Source: Escherichia phage vB_EcoM_JNE01
Strand: one strand, 5' to 3'
Sequence record: OR670491
Length of the DNA: 64,000 nt
A model generated the notes under the pieces. It saw nothing but the letters and a program-made list of their open reading frames with translations, was not told the origin of the DNA and made no database searches. Of the stretch, positions 5,671 to 16,965 are shown in pieces; the first letter of the stretch is position 1, and the number at the start of each line of letters is the position of its first letter. A program made the position numbers and the translations under genes.

Positions 5671-5698
5671 AGCCAGTACAAAGTACTGGCTTTATTTT
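5671..5698. terminator. bidirectional terminator between convergent genes
   Basis: AGCCAGTAC-AA-AGTACTGGCT hairpin flanked by A/T runs. Confidence 0.6.
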
Positions 5699-6902
5699 AT
5701 ATACCACGACTGGGTATTTGATATAATTGGAATTTAGTGTAGTAATCAGAAACTGTTGTCCCGGCTGCTTGTGGGATATAGCCACTCAAATACACATCCC
5801 CTTGATTATCCATATACACTGTTGTACATTCACTTGAACAGAATAACTCGGTGTTAGATACTTTAGGAGCATCAACTGGTGTTACAAATGTAGTACTTGA
5901 TGTTGTATTACCGCGACCGAGCTTACCATACGTGTTTATACCACACATATAAAGTGAATCGGCAGTTTTAACCGTAAGCCCACCATATGTTAATGAATTT
6001 GATTTCATTTCCATATCATCTGATATTGGTAGAGTGGAGATAGTGGATAATACTGTCCAAGAATTAGCGGATGAACCATTACCCAAGTTACCATCGGACT
6101 GAATCCCACTTGCACGAACTGTATATGTATTATTCGTGTTGTGTTTATATACAACCCATGATGCACTCCCACCGAGTTCATAATGTATAACAGTATTGTT
6201 GGCGAATGCACCCATTTGTGTCCATACTCTAATGTTAGTTGCATTATTACTTATACCAAGCGAACCCCATGTGTTTTGACCAGTGACCCAAAGTGTTTTA
6301 TCAATTTTCTGCACAATCACTGCACTTGAACCTGTTTTAACACTATCAACATTCGTATTAATTGACGTAAAAGTTGATAATCTAGTGGTTGTGTTATTAC
6401 CAAAATATCCCTGTGTATTCGTCCCCATTCCATATAGCGTACCATTTTCAAGTAAAACAAAAATACCCTCACCTACAAGTTGAATGTCCTTAATTTGGGA
6501 CAATTGTGTAGCATTGAATACTGATGTAAAATATGAAGTACAATCAGTATAAGTACTGGCAGTACTTAAACCTGCACCAATAGCTTTACCAACCCCACTG
6601 TAATAAAATTTATTATCTTCAGTTTGGATTAAATTAAAAGTACCTTGGGCTGTTCTGAAACGTTTTACATTTTGGTATATTAAAGTCCATTCTTTTACTT
6701 TCGCATTATGTACACCATTCCCGAATCCATAGTTTTGTGAAGTAGTTCCACCTATACCCATTAAGTCTCCATTTTTATATAATAGTAAGAGTGCTGTTGC
6801 TGGAATTACTGACGCACTATAACCATTGTACATAAAGATTTCTTTCACTTCAGGAACTTTCATTTTATTAGCGTATTTAACCATTCTTGCAAAAGGTAAC
6901 AT
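5697..6902 (-). CDS. RCC1-like beta-propeller repeat protein (paralog 1/9)
   Basis: 401 aa; N-terminus MLPFARMVKYAN; Gly/Ser/Thr-rich with G-x-N-x-x-G-[QK]-LG repeats (e.g. INTYGKLGRGN). Confidence 0.7.
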   Translation of the reverse strand: MLPFARMVKYANKMKVPEVKEIFMYNGYSASVIPATALLLLYKNGDLMGIGGTTSQNYGFGNGVHNAKVKEWTLIYQNVKRFRTAQGTFNLIQTEDNKFYYSGVGKAIGAGLSTASTYTDCTSYFTSVFNATQLSQIKDIQLVGEGIFVLLENGTLYGMGTNTQGYFGNNTTTRLSTFTSINTNVDSVKTGSSAVIVQKIDKTLWVTGQNTWGSLGISNNATNIRVWTQMGAFANNTVIHYELGGSASWVVYKHNTNNTYTVRASGIQSDGNLGNGSSANSWTVLSTISTLPISDDMEMKSNSLTYGGLTVKTADSLYMCGINTYGKLGRGNTTSSTTFVTPVDAPKVSNTELFCSSECTTVYMDNQGDVYLSGYIPQAAGTTVSDYYTKFQLYQIPSRGI

Positions 6903-6907
6903 AAAAT

Positions 6908-6930
6908 CCTCCTTTATTCATTATACTATA
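6908..6930 (-). promoter_or_regulatory. conserved upstream motif TATAGTATAATGAATAAAGGAGG (candidate promoter -10 plus SD)
   Basis: near-identical copy upstream of every RCC1-like gene. Confidence 0.4.
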
Positions 6931-6934
6931 TTTA

Positions 6935-6968
6935 GCCAAAAAGGAAAAGCCAGTACTTGAGTACTGGC
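6935..6968 (-). terminator. rho-independent terminator
   Basis: GCCAGTACTCAAGTACTGGC hairpin plus T-run on minus strand. Confidence 0.6.
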
Positions 6969-6979
6969 ATTATAAAGAA

Positions 6980-14574: not shown

Positions 14575-14607
14575 ATATTCCTCCTTTATTCATTATACTA
14601 TATTTAA

Positions 14608-14638
14608 TAAAAAAGAAAAGCCAGTACTGAGTACTGGC
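14608..14638 (-). terminator. rho-independent terminator
   Basis: GCCAGTACTCAGTACTGGC hairpin plus T-run. Confidence 0.6.
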
Positions 14639-14644
14639 ATTATG

Positions 14645-15754
14645 TTATTTTGGTAAATCAATTTTAGTAAAGACTGCAACATCTGCACTTGCACCTGGAA
14701 TGGCGTAATACGATCCAGTACTATATACATCCCCGTCTTTGGTTAATAATGATGTTAATCCGTCACTAAAAGCAACATCACTAATCTCACTAACTTCTAC
14801 AGGTAATTGTAAATTAGCAGCACTATAGATAGCACCCGTTTGAGAATTGTTTAATCCCAAACCACGGTTTCCCCCAATACCTTTCTGATATGCACTAGTT
14901 AATATAATTTGCGTAGCCGTGCTTGTTGCCTCTGAATTTGTCATAAACAAAGGTGAATTATTAGGTAAAGTACTTACAGGAACTGCTTTGAATGTAGTTG
15001 AATCTGAACTAAGAAAGTTTGGAGTTGTACCACATGTGAAATATGATGTACCATTATAGTAATTGAGTGTATGACCACCAATAGCTGCATCTATTACACC
15101 AGAACTACGCAGTCCCCAAATGTTAACTTGTGTTCTGTTCCCTGTGCCATGTAATCCACGGTCATTCCACCCTGAACTATATAACTTATTATCTATGCTA
15201 ATATACATACTATCATTAGGAGTAGACATAACTTTACGCACATTAGAAGCACATAGTGTTAATGTATATATTGATGAAGAACCAATCCCCAATACACCAC
15301 GGTATCCATTAGCCCCAGCACCATAGAGTACTGAACTTGAACTGAGTACAAATATTACACCACCATTGCATACAATATTAGCAATTTGATTCACAGGAAT
15401 TGTATTTGTAAACCACTCCGTTCTATCAACTAATGTAGTACTGTAAGAAGTTGTTGATGATGATGTGAACCAATATGTTTCACCGGATGTCCATATCGTA
15501 TTGTCATTTTTAATAATAACAAGTGTTCGTCCTCCAGTGAAAAAATTAGAAACATCTGCACTTACTAATGTCCAAGAAGATACCGTGTTTTTATTACCAT
15601 TTCCAGATTCACCACCTTGATTTCTGCCTATGTAATATAATTCATGTGAATCAGTCAATACGAATTGACCTTGTGTAGAAGCACCAACTTTTATTATATT
15701 TTTAGGACCAGGTGTAATATTCCCATAATCAAACAGTCTTACAAAAGGTAACAT
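14645..15754 (-). CDS. RCC1-like beta-propeller repeat protein (paralog 8/9)
   Basis: start set at MLPFVRLFDYGN (ATG 15754) with SD GGAGG; motif GRNQGGESGNGN. Confidence 0.7.
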   Translation of the reverse strand: MLPFVRLFDYGNITPGPKNIIKVGASTQGQFVLTDSHELYYIGRNQGGESGNGNKNTVSSWTLVSADVSNFFTGGRTLVIIKNDNTIWTSGETYWFTSSSTTSYSTTLVDRTEWFTNTIPVNQIANIVCNGGVIFVLSSSSVLYGAGANGYRGVLGIGSSSIYTLTLCASNVRKVMSTPNDSMYISIDNKLYSSGWNDRGLHGTGNRTQVNIWGLRSSGVIDAAIGGHTLNYYNGTSYFTCGTTPNFLSSDSTTFKAVPVSTLPNNSPLFMTNSEATSTATQIILTSAYQKGIGGNRGLGLNNSQTGAIYSAANLQLPVEVSEISDVAFSDGLTSLLTKDGDVYSTGSYYAIPGASADVAVFTKIDLPK

Positions 15755-15762
15755 ATTCCCTC

Positions 15763-16965
15763 CTATTGTTGCCATAACTGCGTTGGCATTAATGTTAGTG
15801 TAGTAATACTATAAGTGCCATCAGGCAATCTACCACCATTACCATTCCAGCCACCACATGCATATAATTTATAATCTTTAGTAATTATTATGGTTCTGCT
15901 CCAATCTTTAGATGCCATAAGAACATTGTCATAACCACCACTTATTGCATTAAGATTAAAAATATTCCAAGTTCTAACTAATGTATTAGTTCCATTACCT
16001 TCTTGACCATATGAGTTAGCACCACTACTTCTAACATATGGTGCGTATTGTGCCATAGGTGCACCAATTGATGCATTTCCCATATTACTTGGACAAATAA
16101 AAGTACTGTACTTACTTACATCAACCGTGACCGATGTGTTCCTAATTGGTGTTAGCTGATTTACAGATGTAGTCGTACCATTACCAGCTTGTCCAGTACT
16201 GTTAACCCCGCTATAATATACAGACCCACCAGTAATAAACCACCAAGTAACATCGTATGTAGTACTAATATGTTCTACATTACTAATCACGAATTTGTTC
16301 AAATATACAACAGAACTACCACCACATCCACTTTCACCAAAGTTATCCTTACCACAAAACCATGCATCTTTATTTGATTTGATATAGTGCGTTCCTTGTA
16401 ATGAACATGCCATATGTGTAACTTCACCCATATTAGTCATAACTGTTAGTGTAGGTATGGAATTTTTATTACCAGACCCACATTCACCATTGGTATTTCT
16501 TCCACACGCAATTACTCTACCATCGGTTAATAATATTCTAGTACTTTCACCTATATATACACTCTTGATCATATTAGCCATAACACCAATTTTATTAAAT
16601 GAAGCAGTAACATCAGTCCATGTTCTCAAATAACCATTAACAGGTGTTGCATCTCCATAATCAGAAAATGCACCAACCGACCCAGTGTAGTATATTTTAT
16701 TATCCAAATCAATCATCAATGAACCTTGAACACCAAGCCAAAAGGCTGCACATCGCGTTGCAAGTACTGTAAATGACGCAACTGCTGCTGAATTCCCAAG
16801 ACCAAATTGATAAAAGTTATTACTACCATAACCATATAAAGTATTAGTTGGGCTATGTAGATACATACAGTTTGTATAATGTTGTTGTAAAACATTTGAG
16901 AACTCTATTGGTTCTGGCCCTGGTGCAATATTCGCGTACTTAACCATTCTAGCAAAAGGTAACAT
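15763..16965 (-). CDS. RCC1-like beta-propeller repeat protein (paralog 9/9)
   Basis: 400 aa; MLPFARMVKYAN; motifs NGECGSGNKN, GQAGNGTTTS, SYGQEGNGTN. Confidence 0.7.
   Translation of the reverse strand: MLPFARMVKYANIAPGPEPIEFSNVLQQHYTNCMYLHSPTNTLYGYGSNNFYQFGLGNSAAVASFTVLATRCAAFWLGVQGSLMIDLDNKIYYTGSVGAFSDYGDATPVNGYLRTWTDVTASFNKIGVMANMIKSVYIGESTRILLTDGRVIACGRNTNGECGSGNKNSIPTLTVMTNMGEVTHMACSLQGTHYIKSNKDAWFCGKDNFGESGCGGSSVVYLNKFVISNVEHISTTYDVTWWFITGGSVYYSGVNSTGQAGNGTTTSVNQLTPIRNTSVTVDVSKYSTFICPSNMGNASIGAPMAQYAPYVRSSGANSYGQEGNGTNTLVRTWNIFNLNAISGGYDNVLMASKDWSRTIIITKDYKLYACGGWNGNGGRLPDGTYSITTLTLMPTQLWQQ

Follow-up and report, generated by a model that had tools for sequence, protein, structure and literature searches.

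Nine tandem genes with a shared cassette

The stretch of DNA considered here (the window) comprises 64,000 nucleotides of Escherichia phage vB_EcoM_JNE01 (sequence record OR670491). On its minus strand, at 5697–16965, the list of open reading frames (ORFs) contains nine consecutive head-to-tail genes, bordered on either side by plus-strand genes. All nine products begin with one 12-residue peptide, MLPF[AV]R[ML]xxY[GA]N, which we call the tag and which may act as an address that brings variable binding modules into the virion. In a six-frame search of the whole window, LPF[AV]R[ML] has exactly nine matches, each right after the start codon of an array gene, confirming the nine tandem minus-strand genes with a common N-terminus described in an earlier note on this DNA. 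That note had given a size range of 383–447 amino acids (aa), which we correct to 369–447 aa for the full-length products. At 85–98% identity, though in patches only, the window matches Asteriusvirus jumbo coliphages such as PBECO4, 121Q and phAPEC6, and the closest relative is Turkey5. Orthologous blocks of the array in Turkey5, phAPEC6 and 121Q share 81–99% nucleotide identity.

We number the genes by ascending coordinate and class a body as RCC1-like on a match to RCC1 (PF00415) or RCC1_2 (PF13540) above the Pfam curated cut-off. Six of the nine pass: gene 1 (5697–6902; 401 aa; RCC1, 32.7 bits), gene 2 (6980–8155; 391 aa, from the ORF and Pfam), gene 4 (9646–10797; 383 aa; RCC1_2, 42 bits), gene 5 (10869–12059; 396 aa; RCC1_2, 23.7 bits), gene 6 (12137–13318; 393 aa; RCC1, 23.8 bits, and RCC1_2, 23.6 bits) and gene 9 (15763–16965; 400 aa; RCC1, 39.9 bits, cut-off 21.7). 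The RCC1-like genes 7 and 8 stay below threshold. Gene 8 (14645–15754; 369 aa), which starts at 15754 (MLPF...) and not at the ATG upstream at 15775, scores 20.8 bits with RCC1_2 against a cut-off of 22, and matches WD40_RLD at E = 3e-18. Gene 7 (13395–14574, with its start at 14574) is read from its alignment with an intact Turkey5 ortholog of 392 aa (97.1% nucleotide identity). Relative to that ortholog it carries a 1-nt insertion near 14400, an extra G behind a T6 run, so it is either a frameshifted pseudogene or the product of a sequencing error. Truncated and frameshifted copies are common among tagged genes. Gene 3 (8230–9573; 447 aa) is a divergent member with no Pfam match, and phrog_4219 (E = 8e-11) is its sole family match; the array family matches the same PHROG at E = 3e-101. 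No body class has a match in NCBIfam.

Structure prediction agrees with these profiles. The AlphaFold model of the gene 4 protein, built on a 22-sequence alignment, is a seven-bladed propeller (pLDDT 90.7, pTM 0.88), and Foldseek matches it to UVR8, RPGR, HERC2 and RCC1 (TM 0.64–0.79, E 1e-13 to 1e-20) at 16–19% identity, RCC1 itself at 16–17%. For gene 3, the model is a partial propeller (pLDDT 61.7) with an insertion of about 110 aa, residues 292–402, at low confidence. Taken together, Pfam profiles, AlphaFold and Foldseek bear out the RCC1-type propeller bodies that had been read from repeat motifs, and as modelled the array bodies are RCC1-like seven-bladed propellers. They consist of about 40% G/S/T/N with 12–15% charged residues, and their pI is near-neutral (5.1–8.6).

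The genes are punctuated by a repeated intergenic cassette. Upstream of eight of the nine lies the motif TAAATAYRKTATAAY (9 matches observed, 0.8 expected), with no other plausibly placed site in the 64 kb, and at the same eight genes it is accompanied by a strong AAGGAGG ribosome-binding site. These promoter-like motifs, on the minus strand like all features of the array, lie at 16983–16997 upstream of gene 9 (as TAAATATGATATAAC, with a late-promoter-like TAAATA core) and, by motif match, at 14592–14606 (gene 7), 13336–13350 (gene 6), 12083–12097 (gene 5), 10815–10829 (gene 4), 9591–9605 (gene 3), 8174–8188 (gene 2) and 6920–6934 (gene 1). Downstream of eight of the nine, far above chance, is a putative terminator hairpin with the core GCCAGTACT..AGTACTGGC and a T-run: at 14620–14638 (3′ of gene 8), 13365–13390 (gene 7), 12105–12134 (gene 6, variant stem), 10843–10861 (gene 5), 9617–9642 (gene 4), 8201–8226 (gene 3), 6949–6968 (gene 2) and 5669–5693 (gene 1, palindromic and scoring on both strands). 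Gene 8 starts 8 nt past the stop codon of gene 9, and neither a promoter motif nor a hairpin lies between them. The proposal that every gene is independently expressed thus holds for the eight genes with an upstream motif of their own, but not for gene 8, which lacks a promoter of its own.

Timing is suggested by the motif itself. Classical sigma-70 promoters were considered and rejected, as matches are fewer than the shuffled expectation and none falls at the conserved motif; no −35 box stands at proper spacing from the array motif. The TAAATA core of the array motif recurs in phAPEC6, which encodes a late sigma factor: there, (T)ATAAATA or CTAAATA stands upstream of the genes for capsid, scaffold, baseplate and giant fibre. 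Because of this resemblance to late-gene upstream regions, the array is probably expressed late.

Comparison with Turkey5 shows where the array rearranges. Compared with the Turkey5 array, that of the window is short of three genes, then of one, then of a truncated copy, while its gene 2 has no counterpart there. All four rearrangement junctions, as given by BLAST segment boundaries, fall within the intergenic cassette plus tag (about 120 nt), or within the 36-nt tag-coding sequence alone. The three-gene indel has its overlap at 14535–14653, covering the intergenic cassette and the gene 7 tag; the one-gene indel at 12023–12060, the 36 nt of the gene 5 tag alone; and a further cassette difference at 9537–9585, covering the ribosome-binding site and the gene 3 tag. 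Gene 9 has orthologs in Turkey5 and phAPEC6, and in phAPEC6 the orthologs of genes 8 and 9 stand in the opposite order. The protein of gene 4 is 99.5% identical in Turkey5 and 93% identical to phAPEC6 gp005. Since the repeat extends into coding sequence, exchanges within it hold the protein N-terminus constant.

Other repeats lie close to the array. The palindrome AGTACT, the core of every array terminator hairpin, recurs over 17–23 kb of the window, and an AGTACT-rich segment at 22884–23015 is an exact 66-bp tandem duplication. On the plus strand at 17067–21022, a tandem series comprises about 18 small paralogous ORFs (55–81 aa); several start M..EH(K/M)EYYR..LP, and the units have repeated GTACT-containing ends. 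At 22040–22260, about 15 units of iteron-like repeats with 8-bp periodicity (GGCTAAAC / GGCTGGAC) coincide with a change in the sign of GC skew, and could mark an origin or serve in regulation or packaging. Further paralogous small ORFs (89–92 aa, plus strand) at 23579–23857 and 25629–25898 have ..GHKNKTHWNVSLWINN..TPDGFKYSTTAIRAAMVGM in common. On the other side, a few genes from the array and on the opposite strand, two neighbouring small ORFs at 3695–4419 (+) encode hydrophobic, membrane-like proteins; the cluster of tagged genes in Pectobacterium phage CBB is likewise split by an opposite-strand block of small membrane-protein genes. No tRNA genes were found in the window.

The tag as a module separate from the fold

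In the window, the tag occurs in two subtypes. MLPFARM[VA]KY[GA]N is found in genes 9 and 1 (MLPFARMVKYAN; 16930–16965 and 6867–6902), gene 4 (MLPFARMVKYGN; 10762–10797) and gene 2 (MLPFARMAKYGN; 8120–8155); MLPFVR[ML]FDYGN is found in genes 8, 7 and 3 (MLPFVRLFDYGN; 15719–15754, 14539–14574 and 9538–9573) and in genes 6 and 5 (MLPFVRMFDYGN; 13283–13318 and 12024–12059). Among the eight intact paralogs, tag identity averages 78% (range 58–100%) and body identity 26% (range 22–33%). Across phages, the general form is M-[LI]-P-F-x-[R/I/Q]-hydrophobic-x-x-Y-[G/A]-N. A proline-containing linker follows: in 99 tagged ORFs, Pro makes up 13.4% of residues 13–22 and 2.6% of the bodies.

Several observations indicate that the tag is not part of the fold it precedes. 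N-terminal strand closure is frequent in propellers, and the FxRxVxY pattern is strand-capable, so the 12 residues could in principle form the first propeller element, for example a ring-closing "velcro" strand. In the gene 4 model, however, residues 1–14 lie outside the fold, with pLDDT below 50 (the propeller reaches about 90 or higher) and no secondary structure, and the first strand begins at residue 22. The linker also separates tag from body, and the very same 12 residues begin proteins whose bodies are LamG sandwiches, Kelch propellers or Gly-rich. The data contradict the velcro-strand reading, and we give it hardly any credence. The earlier suggestion of a separable N-terminus, as opposed to the start of a conserved fold, is therefore borne out. 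The alternative that the tag is a cleavable leader fared less well. A hydrophobic-x-E cleavage motif behind the tag is not conserved and is missing in genes 2, 7 and 8, and this candidate was rejected.

A different question is whether selection acts on the peptide or on the nucleic acid that encodes it. The 36 nt might serve as a recombination handle, a translation-initiation region or a tract of gene conversion, with no role for the peptide. In line with this, the first 12 nt are identical in all nine window copies, the tag is contiguous with the conserved cassette of terminator, promoter and ribosome-binding site, and the rearrangement junctions fall at tag or cassette. Moreover, the phAPEC6 ortholog of gene 5 bears a different tag subtype (MLPFARMMNYGN). 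Orthologous bodies can thus carry different subtypes across genomes, and tags therefore appear to be homogenised within genomes regardless of body orthology. Against nucleotide-level conservation alone, fixed residues are encoded by varying synonymous codons: CCT, CCA, CCC and CCG for P3, TAC (32) and TAT (26) for Y10, and GGG, GGA and GGT for G11. CBB and metagenomic relatives keep the peptide with other nucleotides and without the window's upstream cassette (several of their tagged genes are translationally coupled), and the association with virion membership described below is independent of fold and genomic location. The synonymous variation and the CBB genes point to selection on the peptide itself, so that an exclusively DNA- or RNA-level explanation is contradicted and very improbable. 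In 15 propeller paralogs with about 20% identity elsewhere, M1, P3, F4, R6, Y10 and N12 are invariant, that is, 6 of 12 tag positions, compared with nine across the other roughly 400 alignment columns. Judged by these sequences, the peptide is conserved at the protein level. Position 9 varies freely (K, D, E, Q, N, S, T).

The tag is confined to one group of phages and, within it, crosses folds. Scanning IMG/VR with a degenerate DNA pattern for the tag, we found N-terminal tags only in contigs of about 350–380 kb from Rak2-like phages, plus one 109-kb contig that is presumably a fragment. The tagged entries comprise 121Q, CBB, GAP32, fHe-Yen9-04, Serratia phage BF and eight metagenomic contigs. 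Candidates outside the Rak2-like phages were rejected, because every translatable IMG/VR singleton proved to be a chance match, mostly internal to a longer ORF. In total, 99 distinct tagged ORFs from 15 genomes fall into at least 10 body clusters. Rak2 itself has no tag in its first 50 kb, the other 296 kb lying outside the scan. We conclude that the tag is limited to Rak2-like jumbo phages.

Among the bodies, RCC1-like propellers are one class of several. The Turkey5 array includes a tagged Kelch protein, and CBB has eleven tagged proteins with LamG (Laminin_G_3), Kelch, Gly-rich or unassigned bodies. Other tagged bodies without a Pfam match are Gly-rich or belong to phrog_6011. In phAPEC6 (MK817115), an unannotated ORF of 244 aa at 7325–8059 (+) encodes a Gly-rich protein with the tag MLPFGRMVKYGN; GenBank places gp004 (7716–8018) at this locus in another frame. 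Homologs of the ORF occur in 121Q and as CBB_144, and a PDB sequence search with the Gly-rich protein gave no match. It may resemble the glycine-rich motifs of the T-even gp38 adhesins.

Homologs retrieved by body similarity alone also bear the tag. Alignments with body homologs from Clostridioides phages, Seunavirus and other jumbo phages begin no earlier than residue 14–30. The Seunavirus proteins, LamG-like or phrog_6011 homologs without the MLPF tag (4MG 1979–2629 and 6962–7615; GAP31_094, 106 and 108), share another N-terminal peptide (MEEMLLxGG.KSP, M[FL]EAMLTAGKSAP, MQEMLLGG), which may be an address tag of their own lineage that parallels MLPF. In Dickeya phage AD1 (Alexandravirus), the proteins encoded next to the LamG homolog have no common N-terminal peptide, and the phiKp24 cryo-EM paper contains nothing bearing on the tagged family.

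Virion membership and possible locations

Published mass spectrometry of phAPEC6 and CBB virions links the tag to the particle. In CBB, the products of 55 of 554 ORFs were detected, and these include 9 of 11 tagged proteins (Fisher odds ratio 49, p = 2.4e-8); in phAPEC6, 62 of 551 were detected, including 8 of 11 tagged ones (odds ratio 24, p = 2.1e-6). The six CBB virion proteins without a GAP32 counterpart are all tagged, and the CBB authors expected whisker genes among the CBB-specific structural genes. Membership extends to unusual bearers: phAPEC6 gp007, a truncated propeller of 269 aa, is still found in virions, as are CBB_144, encoded within the nrdD/nrdG operon, and CBB_247, encoded in a recombination-gene neighbourhood between the genes for a recombination endonuclease and endonuclease VII. 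The latter two are single insertions (KU574722, 75120–75884 and 173132–173866), and their positions suggest that tagged modules also spread alone, outside the array. The virion association that the earlier note had envisaged is thus supported in relatives, whose published virion proteomes show a strong enrichment of tagged proteins.

Parts of this picture were already in the literature, so that the earlier note's remark that it knew of no described phage system with this architecture was too strong a claim of novelty. The multi-copy RCC1-like array and its detection in virions are published (PMC5259590, PMC7247149). Buttimer et al. (2017) noted multiple RCC1-like copies in 121Q and PBECO4, and GAP32 gp1 as a virion protein. 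Wagemans et al. (2020) counted eleven copies in phAPEC6, eight of which appear in virions in their Table 1, and suggested a possible role in arranging DNA within the inner body. Neither the shared N-terminal tag nor the non-RCC1 bodies or the cassette structure are mentioned in the papers searched on the Asteriusvirus/Rak2-like RCC1 paralogs, nor is the shared N-terminus in a 2026 jumbo-phage review. As far as we have found, the fold-independent tag, its restriction to Rak2-like phages, the prediction of virion membership from it and its second role as a recombination handle are undescribed.

The array genes are annotated as "chromosome condensation" proteins, and that annotation, together with the phAPEC6 paper, raises the possibility that they condense DNA or build the inner body. 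Virion presence and an inner body in the same phages fit this proposal. Its name, however, comes from eukaryotic RCC1, an exchange factor for Ran, and what is shared is a common fold at 16–19% identity. The proteins are near-neutral with few charged residues, and the same tag heads lectin-type, Kelch and Gly-rich bodies. Free gain, loss, truncation and frameshifting among near-identical phages would hardly be expected of a packaging scaffold; CBB lacks RCC1 copies altogether; and coverage of the tagged proteins is low next to several abundant unknown 40-kDa virion proteins. The DNA-condensation reading is poorly supported, resting on a family name, and we consider it improbable.

In the explanation we favour, the array encodes accessory virion proteins that are expressed late and form a hypervariable set, each built from a 12-residue address peptide, a short, flexible Pro-rich linker and an interchangeable ligand-binding body. 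The address peptide would cause incorporation by docking, in every bearer, to the same site on a conserved part of the virion. The modules would then be displayed outside, on or with hair-like fibres or as capsid or tail decoration, and would serve as accessory adhesins that broaden or tune attachment. The tag-coding 36 nt, usually together with the cassette of about 80 nt (terminator hairpin, late-type promoter and strong ribosome-binding site), would supply the repeated homology through which the array acquires, loses and rearranges body modules, each of them staying in frame downstream of the tag; the indel junctions do lie at tag and cassette. We favour display on the outside because the bodies are of binding type, their composition is fibre-like, their variability resembles that of host-recognition genes, and the hairs are unexplained. 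LamG lectin domains are known from jumbo-phage fibres (reviewed in PMC7824862), the LamG body matches a "baseplate wedge" PHROG, and in phiCD211 an RCC1 domain lies inside a 1759-aa protein of the tail-fibre module. Unexplained hair-like fibres occur on the capsid or tail of 121Q, phAPEC6 and CBB. Gene content of the array differs sharply among near-identical phages, as is typical of host-recognition genes, and a 2026 paper places the RCC1-like paralogs among the most divergent proteins of such phages. We give the whole explanation, that is, a virion-incorporation address peptide on interchangeable binding modules that are probably externally displayed accessory adhesins, a probability of roughly 0.55.

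The main rival to external display puts the same proteins inside the head. In this reading, the tag would be a capsid-targeting sequence (CTS) like that of the T4 internal proteins. By binding the scaffolding core it would bring the bodies into the head, from which they would leave together with the DNA, for instance to act as decoys or to inhibit host defence. The T4 internal proteins follow the same logic, with a short constant N-terminal peptide, unrelated bodies and a hyperplastic locus, and these jumbo phages have T4-like head genes (gp23-like capsid protein, gp21-like protease, portal). The phAPEC6 major capsid protein (16123–17298, minus strand) has an LTE|S site at residues 41–43; cutting there gives a product of 37.2 kDa, in agreement with the reported mature 37 kDa, and this match suggests T4 gp21-like protease specificity. 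An internal body is present in 121Q and phAPEC6, the tagged proteins are minor virion components, and Kelch and RCC1 domains are classic protein–protein interaction scaffolds. On the other hand, a hydrophobic-x-E site would be expected to be conserved behind such a sequence and, as noted above, it is not, with position 9 variable as well. The T4 CTS is MKTYQEFIAE, and the tag bears no sequence similarity to it. The bodies are large, beta-rich, rich in G/S/T/N and low in charge, unlike the small, charged internal proteins; a folded seven-bladed propeller would presumably have to unfold to pass the tail tube; and LamG and RCC1 bodies occur in tail or baseplate proteins of other phages. We regard the T4-like role as the less likely of the two, though a serious rival.

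Several points weigh against our preference for externally displayed adhesins, and against parts of the evidence for it. Globular proteins of 25–45 kDa cannot by themselves make 119-nm hairs, and GAP32, for which hairs are not reported, nevertheless has tagged proteins, one of which mass spectrometry placed in its virion. T4-related head assembly, and the internal body seen by bubblegram imaging, make an inside location quite possible. The proteomes are those of relatives (phAPEC6 and CBB) and not of the window phage, coverage of tagged proteins in phAPEC6 is low (3–17%), and whole-virion mass spectrometry does not resolve inside from outside. The promoters were assigned solely by motif resemblance. 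One caveat to the IMG/VR scan is that its pattern itself partly imposes the invariance of M1, P3, F4, Y10 and N12 on the ORFs retrieved. The homologs found through their bodies, the complete arrays in which every gene is tagged and the 15-paralog alignment support the tag free of that pattern.

A broader version of the proposal is more speculative, and we hold it only tentatively. Rak2-like phages may possess a natural plug-and-play display system, in which one 12-residue peptide docks any bearer, be it a propeller, a lectin fold or a Gly-rich adhesin-like domain, at a single receptor site on hair or capsid, and in which the 36 nt serve as an in-frame recombination site that captures and swaps modules, even in metabolic operons. 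Lineage-specific tags would then be an overlooked way in which large myoviruses decorate their particles. The Seunavirus peptide, M-x-E-x-M-L-L/T-x-G on homologous bodies, hints at such a generality.

Comparison with known systems

The evidence points to a virion family whose defining feature is an address peptide rather than a fold, despite the chromosome- and DNA-condensation annotations. As a practical matter, in two published proteomes the N-terminal rule M[LI]PFx[R/I/Q]-hydrophobic-xxY[GA]N picks out virion proteins at far more than the chance rate. Should the tag suffice for incorporation, it would explain how a changing repertoire of binding modules is loaded, and would give a lead on the unexplained hairs or whiskers of 121Q, phAPEC6 and CBB as possible carriers. 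It would also make the most variable virion genes of near-identical therapeutic coliphages candidate determinants of host range or adhesion.

The closest known proteins are the RCC1 paralogs of Asteriusvirus and Rak2-like phages (121Q_234–248, those of PBECO4, phAPEC6 gp001–010, 549 and 551, and GAP32 gp1; phrog_4219), which are the same family at the same locus. Published accounts treat them as RCC1 or DNA-condensation proteins. With RCC1, UVR8 and the HERC RLD of eukaryotes, the array bodies share a seven-bladed RCC1-like fold and GxNxxGQLG repeats, but, at 16–19% identity, this gives no grounds for supposing Ran-GEF or chromatin activity in an E. coli phage.

The layout of the locus is reminiscent of the PeSL cassettes behind modular shuffling in T4-type phages (PMC2839356, PMC4122927), in which a repeated stem-loop and promoter flank variable genes and indels break at the repeat. 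Two differences stand out. The PeSL promoter is of the early sigma-70 type, whereas that of the array, with its TAAATA core, looks late; and the array repeat reaches into the coding sequence.

In protein architecture, the array resembles the anchors of branched tail fibres and tailspikes (CBA120, G7C, phiKp24/K64-1; T4 gp10-like), which likewise combine constant N-terminal attachment with variable C-terminal host binding and place many modules on one virion. Those anchors, however, are folded, span tens to hundreds of residues and sit on trimeric beta-helix enzymes, whereas the constant part of the array proteins is 12 residues long, is predicted to be disordered and precedes apparently monomeric propellers or lectin folds. 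Encapsulin cargo-loading peptides and the cohesin–dockerin pair offer an analogy, in that a short terminal peptide or module addresses many unrelated cargoes to one receptor site; it is an analogy only, as neither is related to the tag in sequence or organism.

In its logic, the tag resembles the CTS shared by T4 IPI, IPII and IPIII, where a short conserved N-terminal peptide on unrelated proteins of a hyperplastic locus determines incorporation. It differs in lacking sequence similarity and a conserved cleavage site, and in heading large bodies with binding domains. If the tag does prove sufficient, its 12 residues would be a handle with which foreign proteins could be placed on or in the particles of jumbo phages, as the CTS is for T4.

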